Program-made: the position numbers and the translations under genes
Notes under the pieces: model-generated
Databases searched by the model: none
Told to the model about the DNA's origin: nothing
Seen by the model: the letters and a program-made list of their open reading frames with translations, nothing else
Part shown: one piece after another, positions 10,106-29,241 of the stretch
How positions within the stretch are numbered: position 1 is the first letter of the stretch
Layout: every line of letters starts with the position of its first letter
IMG/VR virus record: IMGVR_UViG_3300042543_000303
Location: 1-64,000 of that record
Reading direction: 5' to 3' (one strand)
Length of the DNA stretch: 64,000 nt
Source: a virus

Positions 10106-10171
10106 ACGCCCTATTGAAACTTATTAAGCGCGAATTGTAAATACCGTACAAACCGTACGTTTAGTTGTATC

Positions 10172-11123: not shown

Positions 11124-11245
11124 GGGTTACTTACCCTTTCGTGCGTCTTAGAGCAAATCTAAGACAATTTAATAGAGACGTGGTAAACGATATGGAATAG
11201 CCTATGTTTGTCCGCTAGAGTCGCCGAGAGAGCCTTATTTTTCAC

Positions 11246-11755
11246 CTAAGCTGCCATGAAACCGTCTTGATGCGGCCACAGGTACTCGTATGAGCCCGGG
11301 GACGACCCTGGATCCTCCAGATAGTCAAACTGCGAGTACCACTCATAGTTCTTAACCAGCAGCGCGCGCCGATGCGTTGAGACAAGACGCGAGAAGTAGT
11401 CGCCGTCTTGCATCCACGACGGCAAGGTTAGCTCGGAACTGACTCGGCCGAGCTCAAGCGCGCGATCGAAGGTCGCAAACGTCTTGGGCAGAAGAGTAGA
11501 CTTGTAGCCTCGGGAACGCCACTCAAAATAGGTAGCTGAAATGTACGAGACAAGCAGCGCCTCGGAGCCGCGCCACATGCGCGTCACCGGGTGATTGACC
11601 CAGCCTTTCTGCTGACGGTCGTTGCCCTCAGGGTCAAGACAAGTAAGAGTAAGAAGTGTCTGCCATGCCTCAAGTGTCTGCTTGTGAAGTCTTTTATTGT
11701 CAAGCTGGCGAGCGGTAACTTCAAAGCTGCCAGTATCTACAAGAAATGTCTGCAT
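11246..11755 (-). CDS. Pyrimidine-dimer DNA glycosylase / endonuclease V-like protein (MSMEG_6728 type)
   Basis: MQTFL..LDNKRL.KQ..E..Q, GW.NHP..MWRG and STHR..LL.K..WY motifs. Confidence 0.85.
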   Translation of the reverse strand: MQTFLVDTGSFEVTARQLDNKRLHKQTLEAWQTLLTLTCLDPEGNDRQQKGWVNHPVTRMWRGSEALLVSYISATYFEWRSRGYKSTLLPKTFATFDRALELGRVSSELTLPSWMQDGDYFSRLVSTHRRALLVKNYEWYSQFDYLEDPGSSPGSYEYLWPHQDGFMAA

Positions 11756-14568: not shown

Positions 14569-15822
14569 CTATTCTGAGTACCAGCGCTTGCGCACGGCTT
14601 CACGGGAAAAGCCTTTGTCAAGGTTAAGAAGCCACTCACGATCACCAATGAGCTCCCCTTGCGGGCCAGTAGGCGTCCCCTTGATGGCGCCGTTGATAGC
14701 CTCGCCTAGCCACGTGGCGGCTTGCACTGGCACGGCCTTACCCCACACGGCCGGCAGCGCGCTGTACGTGCGAACGGGCTCGATAGCCCAGCCGTCTGGC
14801 AGCCCCTGCATCCGTGCTGCTTCACGATGCGTGATTAGACGCGGCTTTGTTGGGTGTACCACGTGATCAAGCGCTGAGCCGGTAAGAACGTTCGCCCAGT
14901 AGCGATCGCTCCACCGATACGGCGTCGAAAAGCCTAGACGGTAATCCTTTCTTCGAACGCCCTCTTCAAGATTCTTCCATGTCGGCGGGAACTCGCCCAG
15001 GTTATCAACTGCCTTTTTGAGCGCGTCACCTAGACTTTCATTGGCCATCCAGGCGTCGTCTTCGGCAATAGACGTGAAAACTTCCTCGACCCGTTGAGCG
15101 TGGATATTCGTTCGCCCCATGTGCCCGTCAACCTGGCCGGTCTGATTTCTCAGCGAACGCGTCCATTTTGTGTCGTCCCCGACGTATGGCTGCTCTTCCC
15201 ACTGATATGGCATATCGGCAAGGTCACCGATGACTTCCATGATCTTAGGCAACTCAGTGGGGTCGTCGCAGTGCGCACCAAAAGGCAAGCCCTTCTCAAC
15301 CGCTACCCAGAAATAACGCGGCCGGAACGAAAATCCGCCAAGACGCAGATTGTTGTGCTTGACGTGATACAGGTCGTATTCTTTGCCGCTTAGCTGTTCG
15401 AGCATGTCGCGGTATTGGAGCATTACCTCGCGCCCTTGAGTGTACGCCTGCTGCACACACTCAAACGAGACAACTGTCGGCTTCTGCCGCGCGGCGTACT
15501 GCATGAATGCACGCGTATGCACATGCGCCGGTGAATCCGGCCCGCGATATGTTGGCCCGCTAAACGGTGACCACCCTGAGCACGGAGGACACCCGACCAC
15601 AGCGTCCGTGTCGTCAAAATCCGGCCAGTCATCTGGGTCATCAGAGAACCAGGCGTCCCAGTACTCATCATCCGAGTTGAAGTGTTTACGGTTCGCTTCC
15701 GCGACGCGGTTACCAAAATCAAGAGTGCCGACTCGTCCTTGCATCTTCATTCCAGCATTTGCCATGCCAAGGCTCATAAAACCAGCAAGGCCGTTGCAGT
15801 CAACAAACTTCGGGGCACTCAT
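14569..15822 (-). CDS. Divergent DNA cytosine-C5 methyltransferase-fold enzyme (start revised to MSAPKF)
   Basis: Motif IV GCPPCSGWS, motif VI FECV (for ENV), motif VIII RPRYF, motif IX RLITHREAARMQGLPD, motif X WGKAVP (for GNAV). Motif I is altered to DCNGLAG. AAGGAG RBS before 15822. Confidence 0.85.
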   Translation of the reverse strand: MSAPKFVDCNGLAGFMSLGMANAGMKMQGRVGTLDFGNRVAEANRKHFNSDDEYWDAWFSDDPDDWPDFDDTDAVVGCPPCSGWSPFSGPTYRGPDSPAHVHTRAFMQYAARQKPTVVSFECVQQAYTQGREVMLQYRDMLEQLSGKEYDLYHVKHNNLRLGGFSFRPRYFWVAVEKGLPFGAHCDDPTELPKIMEVIGDLADMPYQWEEQPYVGDDTKWTRSLRNQTGQVDGHMGRTNIHAQRVEEVFTSIAEDDAWMANESLGDALKKAVDNLGEFPPTWKNLEEGVRRKDYRLGFSTPYRWSDRYWANVLTGSALDHVVHPTKPRLITHREAARMQGLPDGWAIEPVRTYSALPAVWGKAVPVQAATWLGEAINGAIKGTPTGPQGELIGDREWLLNLDKGFSREAVRKRWYSE

Positions 15823-15853
15823 GTGTCTCCTTCGTCGCGCGGTCGCCCTTACC

Positions 15854-16165
15854 TTACGCTGAGGTTGATCTGTTCTCAGTGATCTGGCCCACCTCATAGC
15901 CGCATCCCGCGTATCCGGCAATGTCGATCCAGGTGTCGGCCTGAAACCCGCCATTGACCAGTCGCGCCATCTTGACAGCGATCATTGCTGCCGCGACGTC
16001 CGATTCGGAGAATGGTCGCCCGAAGAGAACGGTCCAGATCCTAGCAATCCGGTTGAAATTCTCTTCTGGCCCGCCATACTGCTTGTCGCGATTACCGGCA
16101 ATAAGATCTGCCGCGGTACAAAGAGCTTCCTCGCGGGGGGTCTTCTTGCTTTCTTTGCTTGCCAT
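15854..16165 (-). CDS. DUF6378 family protein
   Basis: A..LI.G.R...YG.PEENF.RIA.IW..DVA..M...K.AR..DTW.DIAGYA pattern. Confidence 0.85.
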   Translation of the reverse strand: MASKESKKTPREEALCTAADLIAGNRDKQYGGPEENFNRIARIWTVLFGRPFSESDVAAAMIAVKMARLVNGGFQADTWIDIAGYAGCGYEVGQITENRSTSA

Positions 16166-16170
16166 GTCTT

Positions 16171-16380
16171 TTACCTCTTCATTCTTAGATGCACGGTTGC
16201 CTTGTACGCGCCATCGGCACTCATGTCTGAGTAGCTAGGAGTAATGTCGACTTCGATGTCGACCCGATTTTCAATTTCATCGATGCTAATCCCAAGAAAC
16301 TCTGCGACTGCGCGTAACGTCTTACCAGCAATCTCGTCGTACGTATCGCCTTGCACCTCTAGCTGCGCTGAAGCTCTCAT
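16171..16380 (-). CDS. Hypothetical protein
   Basis: TAATG coupling; operon position. Confidence 0.65.
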   Translation of the reverse strand: MRASAQLEVQGDTYDEIAGKTLRAVAEFLGISIDEIENRVDIEVDITPSYSDMSADGAYKATVHLRMKR

Positions 16381-16799
16381 TACTTGACTCTCTTCTCGAG
16401 CATGTACGGGCTATGATGCGCGCCTTCAATTGCCGGAGCCTTATCGTCCTCCGACTTAAAAATGACATCTCCGTATCGAATACCAACAATTCGTCCGCGC
16501 CGCCCGTTGTGCGCCGTTCCAGCTTCTCCCGTATACGCGTCAGCCTTAACTCGCACCTCATCTCCGACAGTGATTTGCCCCGGCTGCGCTTGAACCCAGA
16601 TCTCATCGGCAACGCTCTGAGGGATAAGCGCGTGCCCGAGTGCTACCTTGCTAAACACTTCAACTGTCTCGGCCGCTGACTTATCTGTGTGGTTCATTGT
16701 GTTCCACAGCTCCATAAGTCTTAGCACCGCCGTGCCAACCGACTGCTTAACTCTTGCCTGCGCGAATTGCTCGCGCACCCACTCTTCGCTAATCGTCAT
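16380..16799 (-). CDS. Hypothetical protein with an SH3/KOW-like C-terminus (start revised to MTISEEW)
   Basis: ATGA overlap with the dCTPase stop. ITVGDEVRV..HNGRRGRIVGI pattern. Confidence 0.7.
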   Translation of the reverse strand: MTISEEWVREQFAQARVKQSVGTAVLRLMELWNTMNHTDKSAAETVEVFSKVALGHALIPQSVADEIWVQAQPGQITVGDEVRVKADAYTGEAGTAHNGRRGRIVGIRYGDVIFKSEDDKAPAIEGAHHSPYMLEKRVK

Positions 16800-17269
16800 G
16801 CCACTACCTCGCACTTCACGCAAATTGTTGAATTAGAAACACTAACCCGGACTTCGTCAAGAGCCCTCGAGCAGACACCACACTTTACTCCAGCCTCGCG
16901 AACTTTGTACCCATCGCGCTGGCGCGCTCGATTCTTTTTCATTTTTTCTAGATAGATTTCGTCAAGCTCTTCGTCGGTGGCTCCAGCGGCGCAGATGATG
17001 TTAGCGACAAAATGCAGAACATCGACCGCCTCCTTAACTAGTTCTTCGCGGTCAAGGTACGGGTCATCGTGCTGCCACGGTTTCCACGACATTGCTTGCC
17101 GCATTTCGGCAAGTTCATCGTCAATCGCCAACATGTTCCAACGCATATACTCGATAGTGGCGTTGATATCATCAGGCGCGTTGCTGTGGAAGACCGAGTA
17201 CTTGGCTCCGTAGCACTCTTCCTGAAGCCTGGCAGTCTCCTTGAGCCAGTCTTGAAAAAGTCTTTTCAT
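16796..17269 (-). CDS. All-alpha dNTP pyrophosphatase (dimeric dUTPase / T4 gp56 dCTPase-like) with a C-terminal Zn ribbon
   Basis: DDELAE..WKPW..KEAVDVLHF..Y.EK..N..RQRDGY, then CGVC..CVKC. Start revised to MKRLF. Confidence 0.85.
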   Translation of the reverse strand: MKRLFQDWLKETARLQEECYGAKYSVFHSNAPDDINATIEYMRWNMLAIDDELAEMRQAMSWKPWQHDDPYLDREELVKEAVDVLHFVANIICAAGATDEELDEIYLEKMKKNRARQRDGYKVREAGVKCGVCSRALDEVRVSVSNSTICVKCEVVA

Positions 17270-17282
17270 TCTTACCCCTACT

Positions 17283-18308
17283 TCACTTTGATGAGAGCAA
17301 CAGCGTGTCGAGAAGATACTCAAGCGCTTTGCCTTTAGGCGTAATTGAAGATAGATAACTGTCCTTTTGCTGCGCGGCAAGACTATCTCGCCGCGCTTGA
17401 TTCATTTCGTCGACGGTAACGGCTAGATCCATCCACGGGTCACCAAGAATAGCAGACTCTCGCCAATCGGTAACGACTGGCACCCCTACGCCTATAGACT
17501 GGGCAACGCGAGGAGTCCACCATGACCCTGTCGGCTTAGACGGCGCAATAAGCGCGCCAACACCTTGCGACATCTGCGCAAGAACGTCACGATCTGCCCA
17601 TCCCTTGTGCTCTTTCATTGGCACGACATTGGTTTTCATTGTTGCTTGAACGCTGGCCGCCCACCGCGACTTCACATCGTCCACGACCCAGAATCTACTT
17701 CCATCGCTAGAAGAGAAAGTTTCTACGTCGTGTACCCGATCAAAAATTAGTGAGTCTAGATTCACTGCTCGAAGACTGTTAACCGCGTGGGGCGGGAGTG
17801 CGCTTGCAACCTTGCCCTGGTTTCCCCACGGCAGAATCGGGTACAAAGTTTCCGCCCAGGTGTACGAATTAAGATAGTTAACAGCGCCGTGAATCTTTGC
17901 CGCAGTTTCTGGCGTGCGTGCCTGCGCGTAGAACGGCCTAGCCGAATAGAAAGGCTTGAACATCGCGGCAGGAGATTCCTGCATCGCGTGAATGCTGTGC
18001 GCAATCTTTCCAGGGTCAGGCGCGTCAAGAAAAAGACGCAGCTTAGGGGAATCGCGCATCTCATTGATAACCCATAGCGCCGCGTACGCATGGTTAGCGG
18101 CGACGCTAGTGAGTGGCGATAGCCCAACGAACACGAGATCATAGTCCTCGAGCGCGTCTCTAGTCATTCCAAAACTCGGTGCGCAGATTTCGCTTGAATG
18201 CAGTTTGGTGCTGAGCGCGCTGGATAGAAGTCCGGCAAATGACACCGAGCGCTCTGCGTATTTTTTCGACGCCTGAGGCGCAGTCATCCCAGTGATAAGT
18301 GTTTTCAT
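17283..18308 (-). CDS. GT-B-like glycosyltransferase, putative DNA glycosyltransferase 2
   Basis: Paralogous to 18553-19734 (MK.L..G.T; D..FV.L.PL.S; WWTPR vs WWRSR). The fold is inferred from the pattern only. Confidence 0.55.
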   Translation of the reverse strand: MKTLITGMTAPQASKKYAERSVSFAGLLSSALSTKLHSSEICAPSFGMTRDALEDYDLVFVGLSPLTSVAANHAYAALWVINEMRDSPKLRLFLDAPDPGKIAHSIHAMQESPAAMFKPFYSARPFYAQARTPETAAKIHGAVNYLNSYTWAETLYPILPWGNQGKVASALPPHAVNSLRAVNLDSLIFDRVHDVETFSSSDGSRFWVVDDVKSRWAASVQATMKTNVVPMKEHKGWADRDVLAQMSQGVGALIAPSKPTGSWWTPRVAQSIGVGVPVVTDWRESAILGDPWMDLAVTVDEMNQARRDSLAAQQKDSYLSSITPKGKALEYLLDTLLLSSK

Positions 18309-18556
18309 TCGCGCCCGCCCGCGGGCTCGTCAACTTCACCAATTTCATCAAGAACAGCAGGTAGCGCGTCTAGCACGCGTTCGACATCCTCGCACGCGAT
18401 ACTCCCCCAGTTAAGCGCGTCGTCTCCAGCCGGGTAGCTGTTTGGGAACCACGCGGCAAGAAGAGCTTGCGCTAGTTTTCTTATGAGCTGATCTGTTACA
18501 TGCTCTGGTAAGTATTCTTCTGGGAAGCTTGTTTCATTGATCTCCGTGTACGTCAT
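18305..18556 (-). CDS. Hypothetical protein
   Basis: ATGA overlaps on both sides. Confidence 0.65.
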   Translation of the reverse strand: MTYTEINETSFPEEYLPEHVTDQLIRKLAQALLAAWFPNSYPAGDDALNWGSIACEDVERVLDALPAVLDEIGEVDEPAGGRE

Positions 18557-19734
18557 ATCTTGAGTCCTTTGTCTTCTCGTACTGCACGGTGAACGATTTG
18601 ATCGCAGTGCGCGATAAATGAATCGTAGCTTGGTATGTACTGCCGTAGCGCGTTCTGCTGCGTGATCGCGAGCTGCGCGAGCTCGGCGTCTGATAGACGC
18701 TCAATCTCGGCAATACTCAGCCGGTGGCAGTCACCAAGCGGCGCGCCTTCGTTCTTGTCCGCGAAGAGAACTGAACCTACACGCGCGGAGTACATGAATC
18801 GACTACGCCACCAGCCAGACCCGGCGTGCGGGTACGGCGGAGACAGAATACCCCAGTGCTCGTTGTAGAACGCGAGGACGTCCTGTTCAGTCTGAAGGCG
18901 CTGACCGCCGAGCTTGCGAACCAACTTGCGCGACCCGACAATTTCGACAGGCCACTCAAAGCGTTTCTTCTCAAGCCACGTGTCGTGCGGCATTAGCGCC
19001 CCAAGCACCCACGCGCGTTTCTTGCTCTCTGGCGGCAGCGCTGTGACGCTGTCAAGAATAGAATAGATCGTCGAGCTCGGGTCAAGCGCCTCGATCGCTG
19101 AAAGCTCTTTCGGCATGCGCTTGCGTACCAGTGAACGATCGCCCCACGCGTACATTGGGCACACAGGCACCATGCCTGCCCCCCAGCGCGCCCCGAGCAA
19201 GTTTCGCGCAGATTCGACAAGCATTGCGTCGTAGTCGCGAACAGACTCGTCAGTCTCCGTCATATAGTAGCGCTCGATGTAGATCTTGGCGTTAGGGTTA
19301 ATGGCTAGCGCGCGTTCCTTGGCAGCTACAGCGTCCGCGTGACTAAAGTACGTGGCGCCCTCCTCGCCGCGATCCTTGCCGACAAGAAGATATTTGTAGA
19401 TCATCTCGGGCTTGCGTATCAACGCCTTTGCACCATTGAACACGGTGGAGAACTGCCAGTCATCAAAGAAACCCACGCAGGGTTTCCCGCTAGCAAGAGC
19501 GTAAAGCGCGCCCATAGCGCCTTGTCTTCCGTTAAGTGAGTTTAGGGGCGCGAGGTTCATCCAGATGACATCGAAAGACGATAGGTCTTCGCCGGGTGTC
19601 ACCTTGCGCCACTCGACCTCATGCCCGGCGCTACGCAGCGCGTCAACGATTGACGCAGGTACGTCAATCTTTGAGATTGTACGCTTGTCGGTGTTGATCT
19701 GCAGGGCAGTAAACCCTGACATCAAGATTTTCAT
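18553..19734 (-). CDS. GT-B-like glycosyltransferase, putative DNA glycosyltransferase 1
   Basis: MKILMSG..DALRSAGHEV Rossmann-type start typical of GT-B. FFDDWQ. C-terminal GIL.PPY..GWWRSRF....GSVL resembles the T4 beta-glucosyltransferase/CgeB-type donor-binding helix. Confidence 0.65.
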   Translation of the reverse strand: MKILMSGFTALQINTDKRTISKIDVPASIVDALRSAGHEVEWRKVTPGEDLSSFDVIWMNLAPLNSLNGRQGAMGALYALASGKPCVGFFDDWQFSTVFNGAKALIRKPEMIYKYLLVGKDRGEEGATYFSHADAVAAKERALAINPNAKIYIERYYMTETDESVRDYDAMLVESARNLLGARWGAGMVPVCPMYAWGDRSLVRKRMPKELSAIEALDPSSTIYSILDSVTALPPESKKRAWVLGALMPHDTWLEKKRFEWPVEIVGSRKLVRKLGGQRLQTEQDVLAFYNEHWGILSPPYPHAGSGWWRSRFMYSARVGSVLFADKNEGAPLGDCHRLSIAEIERLSDAELAQLAITQQNALRQYIPSYDSFIAHCDQIVHRAVREDKGLKI

Positions 19735-19756
19735 TCCGTCTCCTCAGTAGCCCCTG

Positions 19757-19797
19757 CGACGTGCCCGCCCGGTGTAGTGGGCCGGGCGGACACGCCG
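19757..19797 (-). terminator. 16-bp hairpin downstream of the SSB gene
   Basis: CGGCGTGTCCGCCCGG-cccactaca-CCGGGCGGGCACGTCG, with no U tract. Confidence 0.6.
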
Positions 19798-19812
19798 TAC
19801 GCTTCGATCGTA

Positions 19813-20385
19813 CTAGAACGGAGAAGCGGGAGGTGCGCTAGCGCTGACAGCTTCTGGTGCAGGTGCAGGTGCAGGTGCAGGTGCAGGTGCAGGTGCAGGT
19901 GCAGGTGCAGGTGCAGGTGCAGGTGCAGGTGCAGGCGCCGCGGCCGGAGCGGAAGCTGCGAGGGGTGCTCCAGCCGCCGCCTGAGTGGCGTAGTAGGTCT
20001 TGATCTCGTTGCGCTTCTGACCCTGCCACGTGCGACTGCCAACCTGCGCACGGAACGAGCGCCCAACAAGCGCCTGCTCGATCTGAGCATTCGACGGGTT
20101 GGTTGCGAAGTAGTCGCGACCGAGACCAAGAGCGTTCATCTTACGGAAGAAGATGCCAAGCGCATTTGCGTTGTCAGGTGAGACAACCAGGTTGTCCCAG
20201 ACAAGACGCTTATTGTGCGCGCCACCCTGAACCTGAGTCTTCAGCGCGAACATTGTCTTGCCTGACTGCGACACTTTTGCGGTTGCCTCGACCACGGTGA
20301 GTTCATAGTCGCCGTCCGGCAGCGGCTCATAGCTGCCGACGTCTCCGGCCTCGTTGACGAGGTCTGACCAGTTGAGACTGCTCAA
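19813..20385 (-). CDS. DUF669-type single-stranded DNA-binding protein
   Basis: YEPLPDGDY..V..A..S.SGK.M..WDNLV..NE.K pattern, Pro/Ala linker, C-terminal PF. Follows a Sak4-like ATPase. Confidence 0.85.
   Translation of the reverse strand: MSSLNWSDLVNEAGDVGSYEPLPDGDYELTVVEATAKVSQSGKTMFALKTQVQGGAHNKRLVWDNLVVSPDNANALGIFFRKMNALGLGRDYFATNPSNAQIEQALVGRSFRAQVGSRTWQGQKRNEIKTYYATQAAAGAPLAASAPAAAPAPAPAPAPAPAPAPAPAPAPAPAPAPEAVSASAPPASPF
19856..19933. repeat. Perfect hexanucleotide microsatellite (GGTGCA)x13 encoding Ala-Pro repeats
   Basis: Counted directly from the sequence. Confidence 0.97.
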
Positions 20386-20414
20386 TGTATTCTCCTTACT
20401 CTGCCTGACGACTG

Positions 20415-21191
20415 TCAGGACGCCTTCTTCTTGGACTCAGCCGGGGCTGCTTCTTGCTTTGGCCCGAAGACCATGTCGAGCATACGCTCGATTGATAGGT
20501 TTTCCTGCTCGACGACTCCGCCGAGCCTACCCTGTACGCGTTCGCCAGCTTCGTACTTCGGCGTACGCTCGACGTACATGCGACGCACTCGATACGGCCC
20601 TTGCGTTGGGTCAGGATTTGGAAATTCCTCGATAGTAATTGCGCCGAGGATATCGTAGAAATACGGAGCCTGAATAGCCAGCTGCCCCTGTAGATACGGC
20701 TTGTACCGATCATCCTGCCCCGACCGTGCCATGGCGGTAAGAACCACGGCCTCGAGCGGAGCGGTAGGGTGCATCGTTAGGTCACGCAGATCACGCAAGA
20801 GCGCGCCCATGTGACGAAGTAACTCACCCCACTGCTGCTGACTCATCTGCTGCTTCCCCGCGATATTCTCCAGGCACTTAACCTGGAGCTCAGACACGGA
20901 GTCAATGATGAGCGACTTAAACTGATGCTTACCGAGCTGAAGCCACTGGAACGTTTTCAGCACGGTGTCGTAGTCACGGATTTGCACGACGCAGGTATCC
21001 CACGTCCCATCCGCGACAGGCGGCTCCTCACGGAGCGGGTCCCAGTACTTGACAACGATGGGAAGGAAGCGGTGACCGCCTTCGACATCGAGCATGAGCC
21101 GGGGGTAGGGTGCGGTCACGGCGAAGGTTGACTTACCAACCTTTGACTCACCGTAGACCATAATGGTTAGAGAGCGCTGTACTTCCGACAT
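20415..21191 (-). CDS. AAA_24 / Sak4-like recombination ATPase
   Basis: VYGESKVGKST Walker A, LDVEGG, LIIDSVSE Walker B. Lies between an exonuclease and the SSB. Confidence 0.88.
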   Translation of the reverse strand: MSEVQRSLTIMVYGESKVGKSTFAVTAPYPRLMLDVEGGHRFLPIVVKYWDPLREEPPVADGTWDTCVVQIRDYDTVLKTFQWLQLGKHQFKSLIIDSVSELQVKCLENIAGKQQMSQQQWGELLRHMGALLRDLRDLTMHPTAPLEAVVLTAMARSGQDDRYKPYLQGQLAIQAPYFYDILGAITIEEFPNPDPTQGPYRVRRMYVERTPKYEAGERVQGRLGGVVEQENLSIERMLDMVFGPKQEAAPAESKKKAS

Positions 21192-21194
21192 GCG

Positions 21195-22121
21195 TCACTC
21201 AGTTCCTTTCTTTTCGGATTCGTAGTAGCCATACGGGTCGGCCACTTCGAACATCTCAGAGATTGCCTGCTCCGCCGCGCTGCCGTCATCAATCATGTGG
21301 CACACGGTGTAGAACTGGCACTTCCAGCTGCAGTCGCGGCTGGGGCGCGGATACGCAACAAACGCCGGGTCCTCGCCTTCGTCGAGCGCCTTGCGTGTTC
21401 GCATTAGATCGGCGATGGTTCCGTGGATGCGCTTCCAGAACGAGCGCAGTGTGAACACGTTATGACGAACCTCTACCTGCTCGTAAAAAGGCGGCTTCGC
21501 GTTCGCTGAACGCTTGACCTTTTTGAGAAGAGTGAAGATACCGCCGTCGCAGCGCTCGTCGCCTTCGTTTGTTGTCGCCTCGAGAAGCATGTACGTAAGA
21601 ATCTGCTCGTTCATATGCGACATCTTGTTAAAGTCAGTAAACGAACCGCCGACCGTCTTGAAGTCGCGAAAGAAGCGCACGCCGTCAGCCTTGCGCCGAA
21701 CGCGCATATCAAGTTTGCCCTGCAGCTCGACTTCGCCGTTGAACAGCGGGGCGATGATGATTTCCTCCGTCGAGATCATCTCGAGCTCGAGGTCGATGCC
21801 TTCCTCGTCAACCCACTGCAGATAGCCCTCGAGCATGATGCGCCCAAGCTCTGCCTCATTGTCTAGGTCTGACGTGTCGCGCCATTGCTCTGCAAGAATC
21901 TCGCGGTCCTGCTCGACAAGTTGCGTGTGCGCTTCGAGAAGAGGAATGCCCTTTGAGTAGTAGCGATCAAGCGCCTCATGAATACGCGACCCGAGCGCGA
22001 GCGCTCCAGTAAAGTCTTTAGACTTAGGCTGCAGACGACGGTAATACGTGAGCCACCATTTGCGCCGGCAGTCCTTGAACGTCTGTATTTCGGAGTTTGA
22101 TAGTCTTACGACACCAGTCAC
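21195..22121 (-). CDS. PD-(D/E)XK Cas4/RecB-like exonuclease
   Basis: LSNSEI..F..C.R.W, GS.IH, E..GKLD..DFKT and a C-terminal C..C.F...C cluster. Confidence 0.9.
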   Translation of the reverse strand: MTGVVRLSNSEIQTFKDCRRKWWLTYYRRLQPKSKDFTGALALGSRIHEALDRYYSKGIPLLEAHTQLVEQDREILAEQWRDTSDLDNEAELGRIMLEGYLQWVDEEGIDLELEMISTEEIIIAPLFNGEVELQGKLDMRVRRKADGVRFFRDFKTVGGSFTDFNKMSHMNEQILTYMLLEATTNEGDERCDGGIFTLLKKVKRSANAKPPFYEQVEVRHNVFTLRSFWKRIHGTIADLMRTRKALDEGEDPAFVAYPRPSRDCSWKCQFYTVCHMIDDGSAAEQAISEMFEVADPYGYYESEKKGTE

Positions 22122-23923
22122 AGTTTGTTGTCCTTATCGTCACGAAGCATGGAGAGCAGCTGCGCCTTGTCGCGGACAATCTGCTCAAAGTTATCTGCCT
22201 TGGTTTCAAGCGCCTGAATAACACGTTCTTCGATTGTGCCTTCAGTGACGTAATCGGTAATGATCACCGAGTCGTGAATCTCTGAGCCAATGCGGTGCAC
22301 GCGGTCGAGTGCCTGCTTATGATCGACAAGCGACCATGGTCGCTGCAGCATGACAAGTCGTCGCGCCGCAGTTAGCGTTACGCCGACGCCGCCTGCCTGC
22401 GCAGTGAAAAGAATCCACTTGATTCTGCCGGACTGAAAATCGTCGATAGCCTCTTGACGTTCGTCTTCGGTCTGCGCGCCGGTGATCAGCCCATGGGGAA
22501 TCTTAGCTTTTGTCATCGCGTTGCTCAGCAACTCAATCAACTGGCGGGACACGGCGCATACGGCGACGCTGTCACTGCCAAAGTCGCCGGATGATATGTC
22601 GTTCATGAGCGCATCGACCTTACACGACGGCTCGGCAAGAATAACGCGCGATTCACCGCTCGTCTCGTCGATGACCATCTCGGCATAGGACGACGCAAAC
22701 TGCAGCAGACGTGTTGTTTGCGTGAGCGGGCTCGGCGCGGTAAGTGCGTCCCCGCCTTCCAGCTCCGCGATCATCATGTCGCGCATCTGGCCGTACGCCT
22801 TCTTCTGCTTGGTTGACATTTCAACGTCGCGACGCTCAAAGAGTACCTCTGGCAGCCACGGCAACACGCGCGCCTTAAGCATACGGCGCATGCGCGGGTT
22901 GATCGCCGCGTAGAACTCTTCCTGCATATGCGGCTTGACACCGAGCACCATCATGCCGCCGAATGCGTTGAGCATCGTGTCTACAGTGCGATCGACCCAG
23001 CGTGTCTTGCTCGGCCATTCTTCTGGCGATAGCCAGTGCAGAATGGACCAGAGATCGAGCACGTCATTGGCGATTGGCGTTCCCGTGAGAGCGAATCGGA
23101 ATGGCGCGTCCGCGGTGGCAGCCCAGAGCGCGCGTGTTTGCTTGCTCTTAGGCTCCTTCGAGCGGTGGATCTCGTCGGCGATGACGCTCTTGAAGTCGAT
23201 TTCGTTGAGCTCGCGCCGGTGCACCTCGCAACGGTTTTCGCTGATACGCTCATCGTGGCCGCCGCAGTCCTTGCACCGAGCCAGAGCCACAGAACCGTAG
23301 GGTGCGAGGCGCGAGTGTGATCGTAGCGACTCCCAGTTGATGACGTACACGTCCGCGTCGCTGGCTAGTTGCTTGCGGCGTTGTCCGGCGCTGCCTTTGA
23401 TGACCTCGACATTGACGCCTGGCCACCAGAGCGCGAACTCGCGCTTCCAATTCTTTTTGAGCGTGTTTGGGCACACGATGAGCGCCGGAAACACACCCTC
23501 GCCGGCGTCCTGCAGGCGCTTGAGTGCTCGAATTGCCTGGGCGGTCTTTCCGAGGCCAGGCTCATCAGCAAGAAGGGCTCGACGGGCCGTGGCAAGAAAC
23601 TCGACGCCCGCTCTCTGGTGGGGAAATAGGTCCTCGTTGACGCCATTCTCGAGGGTCTCAAGGTCACGAAGGGCGTTGGCCGGGTCGATACGCGCGACTC
23701 GCTCATTGGCCGCCCATTCGCCCAGTCTTGGCCCAATCTCAAGGTCGTCTCGAAACGTCGAGCGTAGCGCCAGGCAGGTTGCCCACCCGAGGGGCGCTCG
23801 CCATACCTGATCCTTCGCTGACCAGGTGGCTCCAGGGATGCTTTTGCAAAGCTCCTTGTACCGCCACTCGGCGTCGATCAGAATCGACTTGCCTTCGGCG
23901 TCGAGCTCTGTCGTTACGGTCAC
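22118..23923 (-). CDS. SNF2-family helicase (start revised to GTG at 23923)
   Basis: LFPHQ, LADEPGLGKT, DEIH, LTGTP, GVGVTLT and QALDRVHRIG motifs. AAGGAGAG RBS before 23923. Confidence 0.93.
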   Translation of the reverse strand: MTVTTELDAEGKSILIDAEWRYKELCKSIPGATWSAKDQVWRAPLGWATCLALRSTFRDDLEIGPRLGEWAANERVARIDPANALRDLETLENGVNEDLFPHQRAGVEFLATARRALLADEPGLGKTAQAIRALKRLQDAGEGVFPALIVCPNTLKKNWKREFALWWPGVNVEVIKGSAGQRRKQLASDADVYVINWESLRSHSRLAPYGSVALARCKDCGGHDERISENRCEVHRRELNEIDFKSVIADEIHRSKEPKSKQTRALWAATADAPFRFALTGTPIANDVLDLWSILHWLSPEEWPSKTRWVDRTVDTMLNAFGGMMVLGVKPHMQEEFYAAINPRMRRMLKARVLPWLPEVLFERRDVEMSTKQKKAYGQMRDMMIAELEGGDALTAPSPLTQTTRLLQFASSYAEMVIDETSGESRVILAEPSCKVDALMNDISSGDFGSDSVAVCAVSRQLIELLSNAMTKAKIPHGLITGAQTEDERQEAIDDFQSGRIKWILFTAQAGGVGVTLTAARRLVMLQRPWSLVDHKQALDRVHRIGSEIHDSVIITDYVTEGTIEERVIQALETKADNFEQIVRDKAQLLSMLRDDKDNKL

Positions 23924-24006
23924 TAAGTCTCTCCTTCCGGGTGCAAACAACATACTAACAGGAAATCTGCAAAAAGTAATAGTTTTCTCGTAGTATGTAC
24001 AAGATT

Positions 24007-24474
24007 TTATTGAAGTAGCACGGTTGGCTTCCAACCAAGCTTTACTAGCCGTAGAAGCCCATGACGAATCGCGTCATTCGCGTGCCCACCACCGCCGACG
24101 TGCCAAGTGCCGATTTTACGCAGCGCGTCGTTCGGGAACATCTTTTTTGCGTCCGACGGAGACTGAAAAATCAACTCAGCTTCGGCATCGCGGGCGTAGT
24201 CTCGCATGATCTGCTTAAGCACGCCGATCTGTTCGAGGCTGTATGGCGCCTGACTGTTGCGCACTGTCTGCGCGTTGATCACAAAGCGTTCGCATACAAC
24301 GCCAAGCTCAAGACCATGATGCAGCGCCCACTCTAGCGTGTCGCGAATCGGCTTTGCAAACTCATCAGGTTGGTACTCACCGGATGACAGTAATTCAGGA
24401 GACTCTGACAGGCTAATCACACTGACGCCAGTAGTCTTTCCAGGGTCTACTGCAAGAACATACTTCACGTCCAT
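24007..24474 (-). CDS. RuvC-like Holliday junction resolvase
   Basis: LAVDPGKTTG, VCERF and HANDA motifs. Confidence 0.8.
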   Translation of the reverse strand: MDVKYVLAVDPGKTTGVSVISLSESPELLSSGEYQPDEFAKPIRDTLEWALHHGLELGVVCERFVINAQTVRNSQAPYSLEQIGVLKQIMRDYARDAEAELIFQSPSDAKKMFPNDALRKIGTWHVGGGGHANDAIRHGLLRLVKLGWKPTVLLQ

Positions 24475-24788
24475 ACGATATTCGCCACTCCTACTCTGGC
24501 CAGCCGGCGCTCACAGCGCTTGCACGGTTTTGACATGGCAGGACTACCATCACGCCCAACGCGTGCCACGTAGACTGTTGCACCCTTCGCACGAGGTCCC
24601 GCCGCGGCAATTGCCGCTTCCTCGGCATGTACGTGCGCGATGCGCCACGTGTTTGAGTCTGCTTCACGGATTCTTTTATTCGTTGCCTCTGCGACTACTA
24701 CGCCGTTCGCAACAACAACGCAGCCGTGCCGGTATCTGCACTTACTCGTCGCGGCAATGTTGATCGCCTGCTCAAGAAACCGGTTCAC
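24465..24788 (-). CDS. Small zinc-dependent cytidine/dCMP deaminase-fold protein
   Basis: HAEE and SKPCKRC motifs. Confidence 0.85.
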   Translation of the reverse strand: MNRFLEQAINIAATSKCRYRHGCVVVANGVVVAEATNKRIREADSNTWRIAHVHAEEAAIAAAGPRAKGATVYVARVGRDGSPAMSKPCKRCERRLARVGVANIVWT

Positions 24789-26623
24789 CGGTACTTATCT
24801 CCCCATGTCTCAAGCGGACCGTCAATGCCGGCGGTAAGCGGGACGTCCCAGCCGTCTGAAGTTGTCATACACTCTTGCACAACCTTCATGATCTCGTGCG
24901 CCTCACGGCGCGGCGCCTGCAGCACAATCTCGTCGTGCACCGGCACAATGAGATGCTCGGTGAGATCTGCCTGATCGAGCTTGACGAGGTTCTGCTTAAA
25001 CACCTCGGCGGCGCCACCCTGAATTAGATAGTTGACAAGTGTGTACACGCGATTCTCATCGCAGGGGATTCGGCGGCCTGTCCACGTGTAGACGTAGCCC
25101 TGCCCTTCCGAGCGTAATCTCCGCATTCCAGTGTCTTCAATCTTGCGCTGGAAGTCGGCCATGCCCGGGTAGCGAATGTCAAATGCGTCTGATACTGAAC
25201 GCATCTGCGTCTCAGGCACGCCGGCAGTTAGCGCTTGCTTCGCGACGCCCGCTCCGTATAGGCGACCATAGACGGTGCCCTTGATCAGATTACGGCGCTT
25301 GTCGCTCTTTTGCATGTCTGGGTCTTGGTAGATTTCGCGACCAATCTCCGTGAACGGGTCCGAACCCGTCGCGTCCGCGCGGTTAAACAGCGTGATCAGA
25401 TTGGGGTCGCCAGACAGCGACGCAAACATGCGAAACTCAACCTGGTCGAGGTCGGACGTGATAATCACGTGATCCTCGTCCTTTGGAATGAAGGCGGTAC
25501 GCACCGTGTCATCGCCCTTCGGCAGCGTCTGCAGCGCAGGGTCGGTAATCGACATCCGCGACGTGCGCGCCCCGAGAGTCTTCACCGACGGATGAACGAT
25601 TCCGTCGATAGACTTGGTCAGGAAGTTCTGAAAGTACGTGCCAGCAAGCTTGTCCGCCTTGCGCTGCTTAAGCACAATCTCGGCGAGCTGCTTGACCTCG
25701 TCATTGCCGTAGATCGTCAACATTTTGAGCTGATCCTTGGTGCACGACTTCTGCCCGGTTGGCGTCATCTCTGTGATCTCCGCGCCGAGGCTCTCAAACA
25801 AGCGCACGAGTTGAATGTTACTTGTGATCGACGTCCCGCCGTACGTTTGCTTGGCCCATGTCTTAACCGACTCGGTGTACGCGGTCAACTCGTCATACTT
25901 GCGCTGCGAATAGTCCAAGTCAATTCGTGCGCCGTTAAGTTCCATGCGCGTGACGATGCGCCGTGCCGCCATTTCGAGTTCGTACGGGCGATTGTAAGGA
26001 CCGCCTGGGCCACACTTCTCCCAGAACATGTGCCACAGGCGCATTGTCAACACGGTATCCAGCGCGCCGTACGCCCAGTATGGCTGGAAGTTGATCGGTA
26101 CCGTTCCCCACGTCCAGCCGTTCTTGGCCAGCTCTGTGTCCAGCGTGTCTTGCAGCGCGACGGCGCGCCCGTCAACGTGCAACGCTGCAAGTCGCTTGAG
26201 CGCGCCAGAGCCTAGCGGGTCGATGATATGAGCCATGATCATCGTGTCGTGCGCGCGATGCCATGGAATTTCCCAGCGCGAACGAATGTCAAACCAACGC
26301 GCCTCGAACGCGATGTTGTGGCAGACGATAGGACCGTCGAAGCGGCTCATGGCTTCGTAGAAGACACCAGACCATTCTTCCCAGGGAATCGACCACCCTT
26401 GCTCGCCGTCGCCAACCTGCACAAGTCGCAGACGCCCGTGCCATGGCGATAGCGCATGATCACGTGGGTTGCCTGGGAGCTCGCCGGTCTCAGTGTCTAC
26501 AGCGATCGCGTTCAGTGGGCGTCGTTCACTTAGCCAGCGCAGAAACTCACCTGCTTTGTCGACAGAGTCGACAAGGTGAAGTTGAACGTCGCCCAGATTA
26601 CCAGTATCAGACAAGAACGTCAC
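24785..26623 (-). CDS. polA: Family A DNA polymerase with a 3'-5' exonuclease domain
   Basis: Exonuclease DTET, HN..F and YGALD. Motif A DLDQVEFR, motif B R...KGTVYG..YG, motif C VHDE. Confidence 0.96.
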   Translation of the reverse strand: MTFLSDTGNLGDVQLHLVDSVDKAGEFLRWLSERRPLNAIAVDTETGELPGNPRDHALSPWHGRLRLVQVGDGEQGWSIPWEEWSGVFYEAMSRFDGPIVCHNIAFEARWFDIRSRWEIPWHRAHDTMIMAHIIDPLGSGALKRLAALHVDGRAVALQDTLDTELAKNGWTWGTVPINFQPYWAYGALDTVLTMRLWHMFWEKCGPGGPYNRPYELEMAARRIVTRMELNGARIDLDYSQRKYDELTAYTESVKTWAKQTYGGTSITSNIQLVRLFESLGAEITEMTPTGQKSCTKDQLKMLTIYGNDEVKQLAEIVLKQRKADKLAGTYFQNFLTKSIDGIVHPSVKTLGARTSRMSITDPALQTLPKGDDTVRTAFIPKDEDHVIITSDLDQVEFRMFASLSGDPNLITLFNRADATGSDPFTEIGREIYQDPDMQKSDKRRNLIKGTVYGRLYGAGVAKQALTAGVPETQMRSVSDAFDIRYPGMADFQRKIEDTGMRRLRSEGQGYVYTWTGRRIPCDENRVYTLVNYLIQGGAAEVFKQNLVKLDQADLTEHLIVPVHDEIVLQAPRREAHEIMKVVQECMTTSDGWDVPLTAGIDGPLETWGDKYR

Positions 26624-27101
26624 TTTCGTCTAGTGTCGAATGAAAAACGTCAACCTTCAATCCGCAAGCGCGCAGATACTTGATGACGAGCTCGGGCTTA
26701 CGATGCGCGTCTGCCTCGCGCAGGCGCATAACAACTCGAACAAGCCCCGAGTTGGACACTGCCTTTGCGCACGACATACACATGCTTTCGGTTACGTAAA
26801 TCGTCCCGCCCTCTACCTGAGTGCGATCTACGTAGAGTAGCGCGTTGAGTTCACTGTGAATGCTGGGGCACTGATCGTATGTGTTATCTAGCGGAGTTAT
26901 CCCTTGAGCTCTTGGGCAGAACTCGATGCAGTCACCTTCACTTGGGTAGGTTGCCGCTGGGCCGTTGTAACCGGTCGAGCAGATACGATTATTGGCGGAC
27001 ACAACAACAGCGCCGATACCAGCGCGTGTGCAGCGACTCCGCAGCGCGATCGTGTCAGCCACAGACATCCACGCCTCGTCCCACGTCAGCCTGCCATGCA
27101 T
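26607..27101 (-). CDS. dCMP deaminase (start revised to MHGRLTWDE)
   Basis: WD..M..A...A.RS.C, TGYNG, HSE.NAL and CMSC motifs. Confidence 0.9.
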   Translation of the reverse strand: MHGRLTWDEAWMSVADTIALRSRCTRAGIGAVVVSANNRICSTGYNGPAATYPSEGDCIEFCPRAQGITPLDNTYDQCPSIHSELNALLYVDRTQVEGGTIYVTESMCMSCAKAVSNSGLVRVVMRLREADAHRKPELVIKYLRACGLKVDVFHSTLDESDVLV

Positions 27102-27102
27102 A

Positions 27103-27291
27103 CTAGTCGTCCTCCCGAGCGTCCTCAATCGCCGATCCGGCGCCAAGAACGATGCTACGGGCGATCAGATCAAGCGCCTCGCGACGCGTAAAGCCGGCGC
27201 GCTTAAGTTCCTGGTAGAGTTCGTGCATTTGAATGGCACCGGCAGCGAGCGGGCTCATGTCATTTGTTGGTTCACTATTCTCATTCGCCAT
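27103..27291 (-). CDS. Small hypothetical protein (start revised to MANENS)
   Basis: HELY..L..AGFT..EAL.L helical motif; GAGGAG RBS. Confidence 0.7.
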   Translation of the reverse strand: MANENSEPTNDMSPLAAGAIQMHELYQELKRAGFTRREALDLIARSIVLGAGSAIEDAREDD

Positions 27292-28171
27292 TGCTAGTCT
27301 CCTCAGTAATCTTCTTGGCCTTTTCTTCATTGTTGCGAATCGCGGTTACCATCGAGTTAGTAAACCACTTTTCGTGATCCTGCAAACGGTCATAAAGCGC
27401 CTGATCAAAGACAGCCTTTAGACAACCAACGGCACTAGCAGACACTTCCTGCCAGATTCGACCAGTGATGTATGGAACCGGTACGCCATCTGTTGCGTAC
27501 TCAAGACTTTCGGCTGCCGCATAGTGCTGCTCATAGATGTGCAACGAACCAACGTGGTGCGCGTACGTCCCGGGCTCAATGCCTAGCACTGACGCAATCG
27601 CAATCTGCACGCGCGTAAACTGAAACCAGTCATATGCGGCGCCGAGCCAAATATCATTCGAGCGCATGTACACACTCATGTTGAGCTTGCCGTTACGAAT
27701 GCGGAACTGATGCAGCACCGTGCACGGATAGTCGCGCTTACTTGGCTGCAGATCGAGCTTTGGGTCCCAGATGGTTACGACCGCCTGCCGCGTATCCGGG
27801 TCTTTCTTAAGCCGTTCAATGACGTGCTCGTATTGTCCCCGAGTGCGCGGGCCGTACGCTCCATGAAACAGCCCATTGTTCTCAGCGTAGTTCGCGAACT
27901 GCGGGCCAACCGCAATCACAAGCTCAGGAGCGCTCACCCCCGCAAGAAGCTGCAGCGACTCAACTGACGCAATACCCGGCACCGCACCGCGCTTAACACC
28001 AAGTGGCAGTGTGTTATACACGTCATCGATGACGATCACCGCGTCCTCAATCTCGCGCGTCTTCATTCCACGCGGCGCGACTTCGTCACCGTTCTCAAGC
28101 ACCCAACGAACAACGTCGACGTACCCGTTGACTCCGTCGGCAACGTGCTTAATTTTCATTGCAGGATCCAC
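27281..28171 (-). CDS. Thymidylate-synthase-family enzyme with a dCMP-specificity Asp (probable dCMP hydroxymethylase or methylase)
   Basis: YG.R, DTRQA, PCT (catalytic Cys), MRSNDIWLGAAYD (Asp where ThyA has Asn) and SLHIYE. Confidence 0.85.
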   Translation of the reverse strand: MDPAMKIKHVADGVNGYVDVVRWVLENGDEVAPRGMKTREIEDAVIVIDDVYNTLPLGVKRGAVPGIASVESLQLLAGVSAPELVIAVGPQFANYAENNGLFHGAYGPRTRGQYEHVIERLKKDPDTRQAVVTIWDPKLDLQPSKRDYPCTVLHQFRIRNGKLNMSVYMRSNDIWLGAAYDWFQFTRVQIAIASVLGIEPGTYAHHVGSLHIYEQHYAAAESLEYATDGVPVPYITGRIWQEVSASAVGCLKAVFDQALYDRLQDHEKWFTNSMVTAIRNNEEKAKKITEETSNGE

Positions 28172-29181
28172 TGAGCGCTCCCTTGTATCTCTTCGCCACG
28201 AGCGAGTCGCTCGATAGCCTCACCGTATTTTGCCTTGTCGCTAGAATGAAAACGTCGAACGTACTGCGGATGCGCCAGCGTTCCGGCCATCTCAAATTCA
28301 AGACCAGCGTCAATCGCAGCCCGCTCGGCCTCGCGGCCTAGCGAAATTACTCGCGGGTAACCAAGCGCCGACCATAAACCGTGTAGACGTTCAGTGTCGG
28401 CAAGATCGTTCGCGTTGACGATACCGAGCTTTGGCCAGGCCTTCTCGGGCAGCGAGTCAAGAAGGAACTCGCCTGAGTTGCCGCCAACAGGCATGAATGG
28501 GAGACGGGTCTCGTCGCCGTACAGCTCGGTGACATTACGCTTGTCTCCAAGAATAAGAGCGCGTGGAGTTGTTGGCCCGATGTACTCGGGGTACTCAGTG
28601 CGCAGCTTAAATGTCTGCCGCGTAGAGAATCCCGCGCGATCAACCACGGCCTTCGCAATTCCGCGCAGACTAGAAGTATCATTTGGTTCTGGCACCAGAC
28701 GCTCGACCACGGACGGGGCAACAGTCATACCAAAGTCATAGCGCTCAACGATCGCGTCGAGTTCGCCGACCGATACAAAATCATCGCCGCGGGACTCAAG
28801 GCGTGTTCGAAGAACATCGAGCGGCTGGCTGAGAATCCACGTTGTCGCTCCGCGGGACATAAGAAAAAGCTCAACCCATCGCCAGCCTGCGCGCCCGAGT
28901 AAACCGTACCCGTCTTTGTTTGTGTGAGGGCGCTTGAGCGGTGCGTACGTGACCTCGCCCCAGTGCCAACGGTCCGCGACGATACACGCTCCAGACGTCG
29001 CGAGTTCGTCAATCGACAAGACGTATTCATTGAGCACCCATCGCCGCGATTCCTCGAGAGGGCGACCCTTATGAAAATGGTGCGCGCTATGAACTCCGCA
29101 CGACACGCTTAGGTGGTGCTCGAGCGCTCCAAGCATTGAGCTCTTACCGGCCGCGTCTGGGCCTTCGATGATGATAAACAT
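28156..29181 (-). CDS. Thymidylate-kinase-like dNMP kinase fused to a uracil-DNA-glycosylase-like domain
   Basis: IIIEGPDAAGKS P-loop and DR.H..E..Y. C-terminal YIG..LILGD..PF..SG.FL..N..LG..A..HPQY follows the UDG-superfamily motif order. Confidence 0.75.
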   Translation of the reverse strand: MFIIIEGPDAAGKSSMLGALEHHLSVSCGVHSAHHFHKGRPLEESRRWVLNEYVLSIDELATSGACIVADRWHWGEVTYAPLKRPHTNKDGYGLLGRAGWRWVELFLMSRGATTWILSQPLDVLRTRLESRGDDFVSVGELDAIVERYDFGMTVAPSVVERLVPEPNDTSSLRGIAKAVVDRAGFSTRQTFKLRTEYPEYIGPTTPRALILGDKRNVTELYGDETRLPFMPVGGNSGEFLLDSLPEKAWPKLGIVNANDLADTERLHGLWSALGYPRVISLGREAERAAIDAGLEFEMAGTLAHPQYVRRFHSSDKAKYGEAIERLARGEEIQGSAQWILQ

Positions 29182-29184
29182 CGG

Positions 29185-29241
29185 CGTCCTTTGTCGTTAG
29201 GTATGCAAAGTAATTATACCACTACGCGTGCGATTTGCGAA
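29185..29241 (-). promoter_or_regulatory. SigA-type promoter heading the replication/modification operon
   Basis: TTCGCA-17 nt-TATAAT with an extended TGG, then TAACGACA and an AGGACG RBS. Confidence 0.75.

Follow-up and report, generated by a model that had tools for sequence, protein, structure and literature searches.

The first 64 kb of the IMG/VR virus record IMGVR_UViG_3300042543_000303 (73,960 bases; CheckV completeness 44%), which we call the window, carry a block of genes that probably encodes a T4-type pathway for a modified cytosine, assembled in part from proteins different from those of T4. The block occupies positions 29181 to 14569 of the minus strand, and its open reading frame (ORF) coordinates show a single packed, co-oriented unit in which, along the whole length, neighbouring ORFs overlap by 1-28 nt or are separated by less than 80 nt. 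In T4, the gp56 dCTPase/dUTPase, the gp42 dCMP hydroxymethylase, the gp1 deoxynucleoside monophosphate (dNMP) kinase, the cd deaminase and the alpha- and beta-glucosyltransferases together make glucosyl-5-hydroxymethylcytosine (glucosyl-5hmC).

Four observations carry our reading: the active-site signature of a thymidylate synthase homologue, the homology of a pyrophosphatase to gp56, the GT-B fold of two further proteins, and the co-occurrence of these genes across lineages. From there we infer the substrates of the enzymes, the completeness of cytosine replacement, the kind of sugar, and DNA as its acceptor. The original prediction for this region was that the phage replaces cytosine with a C5-modified base and then adds sugar. 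That core reading agrees with the gp42 signature, the gp56 homology and the folds, similar to that of T4 beta-glucosyltransferase (BGT), and we consider it probable.

Active site of the thymidylate synthase homologue

The gene at 27281..28171 (minus strand) encodes a thymidylate synthase (TS) homologue (PF00303, 1.2e-25) that is a candidate gp42-type dCMP hydroxymethylase. We aligned it with E. coli ThyA, T4 gp42, RB69 gp48 and an SPO1-type dUMP hydroxymethylase, and compared 13 active-site positions in E. coli numbering. At all 13 the residue is the same as in T4 gp42: E58, Y94, R126, D143, C146, T147, R166, S167, D169, G173, D177, H207 and Y209. The alignments with ThyA and gp42 thus show the catalytic cysteine (Cys146) and the conserved core residues of the TS family (E58, Y94, R166, H207 and Y209) all in place, and R126 and S167 are invariant in the TS alignment. 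The other enzymes depart from this string: RB69 gp48 has E143, N169, V173 and F209, the SPO1-type dUMP enzyme has N177, and ThyA has L143, H147 and N177. The Asp that had been noticed at the specificity position is therefore real, within a motif (RSND..G...D) that is that of gp42, and the comparison with gp42 proposed in advance came out equal at each of the 13 positions. The same 13 residues recur in every one of the 22 copies in related metagenomic loci, and also in the enzymes of Actinomycetia phage DSL-LC01 and of Gordonia phage Phendrix.

Published work on this family gives these residues a meaning. Selection of dCMP comes with the change N177D, non-methyl products come with an acidic residue at position 143, which admits water to give a hydroxymethyl group, and D169N is diagnostic for 5-hydroxycytosine synthases, all tested examples of which have N169 (PMC13326640). 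Positions 177 and 147 are those that best separate TS homologues on modified-cytosine environmental contigs, which carry Asp177, from other TS homologues (PMC8670742). NCBIfam equivalog models for thymidylate synthase all score far under their cut-offs against the window protein. It is the sole PF00303-type gene of the contig, as are its counterparts in the complete DSL-LC01 and Phendrix genomes, and no ThyX gene (PF02511) was found in any of the three. On these residues we are fairly confident that the protein would act as a dCMP hydroxymethylase and not as a thymidylate synthase, despite its public annotations.

The best solved relative of the TS homologue is MilA (1e-25), the CMP hydroxymethylase of mildiomycin biosynthesis in Streptomyces, which also has Asp at the equivalents of positions 143 and 177. 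The two enzymes differ in the residues that read the sugar: Arg126 and Ser167 mark deoxyribose substrates, while MilA has Lys133 and Ala176 (PMC5175136), which favour ribo-CMP; the window enzyme has the Arg and Ser of the deoxy-specific enzymes. We set aside a MilA-like role in making a free-nucleoside antibiotic because of R126 and S167 and because the gene sits among phage replication genes rather than in a nucleoside-antibiotic cluster.

A homologue of the T4 dCTPase

The gene at 16796..17269 (minus strand) encodes an all-alpha dNTP pyrophosphatase (PF08761 dUTPase_2, 2.5e-10), a proposed dCTPase/dUTPase. BLASTP aligns it with T4 gp56 at 4e-11, with 27% identity over 146 columns, and places its RQRDGY against the terminal RQDNGY of gp56, so that the two share an RQxxGY motif. 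PHROGs 173, 18650 and 12184 are matched by both proteins, although the best family differs between them. By this comparison, which had also been suggested beforehand, the protein is a true homologue of gp56, with a presumed specificity for dCTP. One detail of the original prediction was wrong: the protein does not end in RQRDGY, but continues for 36 residues that contain CxxC...CxxC, a putative zinc ribbon (16796-16900) not present in T4 gp56.

Two GT-B paralogues

Two proteins of the block are candidate glycosyltransferases (GTs) recognised through AlphaFold and Foldseek: GT 1, of 393 aa (18553..19734, minus strand), which we propose as a DNA 5hmC glycosyltransferase, and GT 2, of 341 aa (17283..18308, minus strand). 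BLASTP aligns them over their full length at 1e-9, which makes them paralogues. The gene between them (18305..18556, minus strand) overlaps each by 4 nt and encodes an acidic protein of 83 aa without a family match; a small ORF occupies the same place in Phendrix.

Sequence searches say little about the GT pair. Pfam, NCBIfam and PHROG gave nothing for either protein except one function-unknown PHROG for the 393-aa protein, the homologues we collected for both are metagenomic only and none is named, and the family profile run against PDB sequences returned chance matches only (E ~1). Structure prediction was more informative. With the family alignments as input, the AlphaFold models of both proteins are confident (pLDDT 90.4 and 91.4), and BGT tops the Foldseek list for both. 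When 48,161 representative solved chains were compared exhaustively, BGT ranked first and T4 alpha-glucosyltransferase (AGT) third. As modelled, then, both proteins are GT-B enzymes of two Rossmann domains, and among solved structures the DNA glucosyltransferases of T4 come closest to them. The two paralogous GT-B-like proteins of the original prediction were thus borne out, and the Foldseek comparison with BGT and AGT that it had proposed supports the likeness at the level of the fold only.

To see where this family occurs, we searched 50,697 phage records by tblastn with the 393-aa protein and found relatives in only 58 of them. The carriers are 13 Gordonia phages, DSL-LC01, T4-like phages of Aeromonas, Vibrio, Stenotrophomonas, Erwinia and Providencia, two Manatee Spring siphovirus records (both 56,278 bp) and phage C48C1 (Kyanoviridae). 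We extracted the TS-family genes from five sampled GT carriers that are not actinophages. Aeromonas phage 25 and Erwinia phage FBB1 each encode two TS proteins, a canonical td and one in which the gp42 signature is complete, and the Manatee Spring siphovirus has a single TS, again with the gp42 signature. Providencia phage PSTRCR_127, whose GT relative is distant, has td and an RB69-type D169N enzyme. The gp42-signature TS is therefore found in three of the five sampled carriers and the RB69 type in one. In the T4-like phages of Aeromonas, Vibrio, Stenotrophomonas and Erwinia the GT relatives are unannotated, among them those in Aeromonas phage 25 (locus L103, 4001-5077) and Erwinia phage FBB1 (locus L102, 5937-8062).

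Genes for sugar metabolism accompany the GTs in some of these phages. A UDP-galactopyranose mutase adjoins the GT in DSL-LC01 and in Erwinia FBB1, and such a mutase has been implicated in DNA glycosylation in the RL38JI cluster (PMC13326640). Because the GT of FBB1 directly follows the mutase and FBB1 has a TS with the gp42 signature, these data suggest galactofuranosyl-5hmC in the T4-like GT carriers of Aeromonas, Vibrio, Stenotrophomonas and Erwinia. In Phendrix, two more annotated glycosyltransferases lie between the second BGT-like gene and the MazG-like gene. A DNA-glycosylation cassette would be expected to show this pattern, in which the core is fixed and the sugar genes vary.

Kinase, deaminases and polymerase

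The first gene of the block (28156..29181, minus strand) encodes a dNMP kinase with a Tmk/YorR-like P-loop domain (residues ~1-170; PHROG thymidylate kinase, 2e-10). Its family profile matches the SPbeta YorR kinase at 1e-7 over positions 2-156, the whole kinase domain, as well as Tmk P-loops, and the domain is 30% identical to Phendrix gp182. An hhalign comparison of the kinase family with RB69p045 recovered a P-loop match only. By these profile comparisons, the protein is dNMP-kinase-like and of a type other than T4 gp1. A 16-nt overlap joins the kinase gene to the TS gene, an arrangement similar to the cognate TS-kinase pairs that were required in the work of Lee et al. for incorporation of the modified base into DNA (PMC13326640).

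The C-terminal part of the kinase protein (~180-341) may belong to the uracil-DNA glycosylase (UDG) superfamily, which we offer as a lead only. Its last 160 residues (28156-28650) have an ESM Atlas feature score of 0.89 and a TM score of 0.69 to an archaeal UDG cluster. Neither Pfam (E up to 5), nor phmmer against PDB, nor the family profile against PDB supported the assignment. The DSL-LC01 kinase protein is equal in length to that of the window, and Phendrix gp182 gave no match to this domain. By eye, we also noted PF..G..G..L and HPQYVRR stretches in the domain that resemble family 4/5 UDG motifs.

The dCMP deaminase gene (26607..27146, minus strand) is of the ComEB or T4 cd type (PF00383, 3e-16; PHROG dCMP deaminase, 2e-36), and its product has both zinc motifs, HSE and CxxC; translation probably begins at the ATG near 27101. 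Between it and the TS gene is a gene for a 75-aa protein (27103..27330, minus strand) without a Pfam match, which is 34-57% identical in most related loci. The polymerase (24785..26623, minus strand) is a family A DNA polymerase, PolA (PF00476, 1.8e-55), with a 3'-5' exonuclease domain (PF01612). The claim that this phage uses non-orthologous kinase and polymerase parts accordingly stands, the kinase being Tmk/YorR-like and the polymerase PolA, neither of the T4 type. Between the PolA gene and a RuvC-like gene lies a second deaminase-fold gene (24465..24788, minus strand), whose 107-aa product has the cytidine/dCMP-deaminase fold (PF00383, 1e-11) with intact HAE and PCxxC motifs. It occurs in only 4 of 21 related loci and is absent from this place in DSL-LC01; the protein is an accessory and variable one.

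A conserved methyltransferase-like gene

The block ends with a gene (14569..15954, minus strand; probable start at 15822) for a C5-cytosine-methyltransferase (C5-MTase)-like protein (PF00145, 4.7e-18). It matches M.HaeIII, Dcm-like and DNMT1 chains at 1e-6 to 1e-8, and Phendrix gp106 at 32% identity (3e-62). The catalytic residues are kept: the Pro-Cys of motif IV (PPC), the Glu of motif VI (ECV) and the RxR of motif VIII (RPR). The cofactor-side motifs are atypical. The MAFFT alignment with Dcm was wrong in the N-terminal half, and these motifs were therefore compared by eye: in place of the FAGIGG (motif I, canonically FxGxG) and GNSV (motif X, canonically GNxV) of Dcm, the protein has NGLAG and GKAV, and DSL-LC01 and Phendrix show the same changes (Asn and Lys). 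This is the only one of the proposed extra genes that is kept with the cassette in all three lineages. It may point to partial replacement of cytosine, to another DNA or RNA target, or to further chemistry on 5hmC.

The other genes that the original prediction took as signs of chemistry beyond that of T4 are less constant. The DUF6378 gene (15854..16165, minus strand; PF19905, 1.4e-26) is in the same place in DSL-LC01 and is absent from Phendrix and T4, and thus is not a core part of the cassette. Phendrix gp107 was considered as a DUF6378 protein and rejected on comparison. The gene previously called SH3-like (16380..16823, minus strand) encodes a 147-aa protein that is 38-55% identical in related loci; over residues 23-80 it matches the Thoeris inhibitor Tad3 at a score below threshold (20.5 bits, cut-off 27; E 4e-4).

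Conservation of the cassette

We compared the block with 21 related IMG/VR loci of at least 15 kb. All 21 keep the genes from the C5-MTase-like gene through the dCMP deaminase gene, and the TS and kinase genes are kept in all 17 loci that reach far enough. We regard the named phages as more telling than the 21 loci. The TS homologue is 61% identical to that of DSL-LC01 and 40% identical to that of Phendrix, and in Phendrix the cassette is split, the GT-dNTPase-MTase half lying ~25 kb from the TS-kinase-deaminase-PolA half. Every core part is nonetheless kept in both phages. Cultured Gordonia carriers of the cassette include Phendrix and GodonK.

Proposed pathway and known systems

By analogy with T4, the pathway would begin with the gp56-like pyrophosphatase, which would convert dCTP (and dUTP) to the monophosphate and keep plain cytosine out of phage DNA. 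The gp42-type TS homologue, with methylene-tetrahydrofolate, would turn dCMP into 5-hydroxymethyl-dCMP; the Tmk-like kinase would take this to 5-hydroxymethyl-dCDP and the host NDP kinase to the triphosphate, which the phage PolA would incorporate into DNA as 5hmC. The dUMP formed by the dCMP deaminase would go to the thymidylate synthase of the host; neither ThyX nor another TS is encoded. After replication, the two BGT-fold paralogues would move sugar from a host nucleotide-sugar to the hydroxymethyl group, and the pair may form two different linkages or add two sugars in succession.

The T-even glucosyl-5hmC system is therefore the closest in logic and in enzyme roles, sharing the gp42 signature, a gp56 homologue, a dCMP deaminase and two GT-B transferases. 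It differs in several of its parts. Where T4 has a gp1-type kinase and a family B polymerase, the window has a Tmk/YorR-like kinase, with the possible UDG-like domain, and a family A polymerase; its GTs resemble BGT and AGT in fold alone, and its TS homologue falls in PHROG 5131 while gp42 falls in PHROG 160. The window phage also lacks td and ThyX, has the additional conserved C5-MTase-like gene, and, judging from its genes and nearest relatives, infects an actinobacterium and has a siphovirus-type virion.

Two other systems bear comparison. The glycosylated 5-hydroxycytosine phages RB69, DLP3 and RL38JI (Lee et al., NAR 2026, PMC13326640) likewise combine an Asp177 TS with a cognate dNMP kinase and DNA glycosyltransferases, and their sugar chemistry varies among relatives, the UDP-galactopyranose mutase of RL38JI having its parallel in DSL-LC01 and FBB1. 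The window enzyme, unlike theirs, lacks D169N, and its residues 173 and 209 are those of gp42 and not of RB69 gp48; with gp42-like residues at 169, 173 and 209, the predicted base is therefore 5hmC rather than 5-hydroxycytosine. The post-replicative route through a C5-methyltransferase, a 5mYOX (TET) dioxygenase and a GT (Burke et al. 2021, PMC8256090; bioRxiv 10.1101/2023.12.21.572611) resembles the block in having a C5-MTase-fold gene and DNA-type GTs together. We set this route aside, since searches of the contig and of the complete genomes of DSL-LC01 and Phendrix recovered no TET/JBP dioxygenase (PF12851); a pre-replicative TS route is present instead.

Alternative explanations

Several points weigh against the proposed pathway. 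The best PHROG family of the dNTPase is labelled dUTPase, and the substrate range of such an enzyme is not readable from sequence. The GT family has no similarity to BGT at the level of sequence (hhalign probability <1%); for the 341-aa GT 2, BGT leads SenB by less than 1 Z; and a shared GT-B fold cannot fix the acceptor. One of the five sampled GT carriers, phage C48C1, has no PF00303 gene. Conservation in the 21 related loci is mainly common descent within one lineage. Finally, the conserved C5-MTase-like protein would be left without a substrate if every cytosine were 5hmC, so that replacement may be partial, or the pathway may be unlike that of T4.

The strongest competitor accepts that 5hmC or another C5-substituted cytosine is made before replication and differs over the final base, which would not be a simple glycoside: the GTs would act off DNA, for instance on virion proteins or the host envelope, or the C5-MTase-like protein and the small conserved proteins would turn 5hmC into another derivative. 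We consider this unlikely. The C5-MTase-like gene, with its atypical cofactor-side motifs, stays beside the gp56-like gene in three lineages, the fold does not identify the GT acceptor, and the window holds a further glycosyltransferase gene of the GT2-TPR kind at 8019-9086. However, the GT family is nearly confined to phages with cytosine-specific TS homologues, the two DNA glucosyltransferases of T4 are the solved chains that rank first and third, and the GT genes sit in the replication and nucleotide module rather than in the structural module.

A more specific form of the idea, which we hold to be more doubtful still, is that the C5-MTase-like protein is not a methylase at all and acts on 5hmC or glycosyl-5hmC in DNA, giving together with the GTs and the variable sugar genes an undescribed cytosine hypermodification. 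It is prompted by the retention of the cytosine-activating Cys, Glu and Arg alongside altered motifs on the S-adenosylmethionine side. If true, the DNA of these actinophages carries a new base and not a T4-like glucosyl-5hmC.

The remaining two explanations change the product of the TS homologue, and we think both very improbable. According to the first, the product would be either the 5-methyl-dCMP of Xp12 or the 5-hydroxy-dCMP known from RB69, DLP3 and RL38JI, and the sugar would then be joined by an ether bond. Asp177 by itself does not tell these products apart (PMC13326640, PMC8670742), and one distant GT relative occurs in a phage with the RB69-type signature. Yet the window enzyme keeps D169, whereas the tested 5-hydroxycytosine synthases have the N169 that we see in RB69 gp48, a 5-hydroxy-dCMP synthase by experiment, and in the homologue of Providencia PSTRCR_127. 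Position 143 is Asp and not the bulky hydrophobic residue of enzymes with methyl products (PMC13326640), a comparison that Xp12 itself lies outside.

According to the second, these are genes of ordinary nucleotide metabolism and auxiliary metabolic genes: a TS that makes dTMP, a thymidylate kinase, a housekeeping dUTPase/MazG, and GTs that with the mutase remodel the cell wall of the host. This is how the GenBank annotations of DSL-LC01 and Phendrix read the genes, and the paper on DSL-LC01 takes its UDP-galactopyranose mutase and MTase for host-metabolism genes, that is, auxiliary metabolic genes (PMC10611076). The residues speak against it. Asn177, Leu143 and His147 of ThyA are Asp, Asp and Thr in the window enzyme, while the canonical td proteins of Aeromonas phage 25, Erwinia FBB1 and Providencia PSTRCR_127, aligned in the same run, keep L143 and N177; the low thymidylate-synthase equivalog scores argue in the same direction.

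Scope of the finding

The mechanism is known from T4, and metagenomic GT-B candidates have already been found, in bulk surveys, to be linked most often to TS homologues (bioRxiv 10.1101/2023.12.21.572611). The advance is thus one of scope and parts and not of principle. In the literature searched, chemically documented pre-replicative replacement of cytosine is mainly found in T4-like myoviruses of Gram-negative hosts, and we found no report of hydroxymethylcytosine or of a dCMP hydroxymethylase in actinobacteriophages. What is new is the host group, the virion type, a non-orthologous fused kinase, the use of PolA, a GT family known by its fold only, and a conserved MTase-like partner that has no place in a T4-type scheme.

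If the proposed pathway is correct, a widespread freshwater actinophage lineage and the cultured Gordonia Godonkavirus group have hypermodified DNA, with a bearing on sequencing bias, on restriction and CRISPR sensitivity, and on host-range work with SEA-PHAGES isolates. A GT family that T4-like phages of Aeromonas, Vibrio and Erwinia also carry, unannotated, would moreover gain a function. Because cultured Gordonia phages carry the same kit, the prediction can be tested at the bench.

Other genes of the block and the window

Family scans give the full gene order of the block. It opens with the Tmk-like kinase, the TS homologue, the 75-aa protein, the dCMP deaminase, PolA and the short second deaminase-fold protein, continues with a RuvC-like gene, an SNF2 helicase, a PD-(D/E)XK nuclease, an AAA_24 ATPase and DUF669, and closes with the 393-aa, 83-aa and 341-aa proteins, the dUTPase_2/MazG-like dNTPase, the 147-aa protein, a 69-aa protein, DUF6378 and the C5-MTase-fold protein. 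The middle group, of replication and recombination genes (19813..24474, minus strand), lies between the two halves of the pathway; it was identified by Pfam and its gene order is identical in DSL-LC01, the RuvC-like gene being assigned by its place in that order. Every gene of the original prediction was found at its coordinates on the minus strand, co-oriented and coupled by overlaps. The list was correct as far as it went and incomplete, as it missed the second deaminase-fold gene (24465-24788), the recombination and replication genes, and the C-terminal domain of the kinase.

Megablast against the 50,697 phage records returned no near relative of 24000-29200. At the level of named phages, the nearest relative is DSL-LC01, followed by Gordonia phages. 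Together with a WhiB gene at 9578-10105, these relatives point to an actinobacterial host. A tape measure protein of 1297 aa, a major tail protein and a Dit-like protein indicate a siphovirus-type tail, so the description of this uncultured freshwater virus as an actinobacterial siphovirus is well backed.

The DUF669 (SSB-like) protein (19813-20385) ends at its C terminus in a long Ala-Pro dipeptide repeat, whose coding sequence is a repeated hexanucleotide. As artefacts of the repeat, each strand also has an open frame across this stretch, and the two frames overlap.

Further genes that are possibly related to the block lie at 8019-11755, and a comparable set follows the MTase gene of DSL-LC01. 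They comprise the GT2-TPR glycosyltransferase gene already mentioned (8019-9086), a class I S-adenosylmethionine-dependent methyltransferase (9048-9578), a DUF4406 gene (10752-11123), of a nucleoside-deoxyribosyltransferase-like family, and a pyrimidine-dimer glycosylase of the T4 endonuclease V type (11246-11755).

The head module contains two giant ORFs. The ORF at 52902-57611 encodes 1569 aa, of which residues 845-1260 match portal and head-protein PHROGs. The other, at 58671-63998, is without a PHROG match and encodes more than 1775 aa, continuing past the edge of the window.

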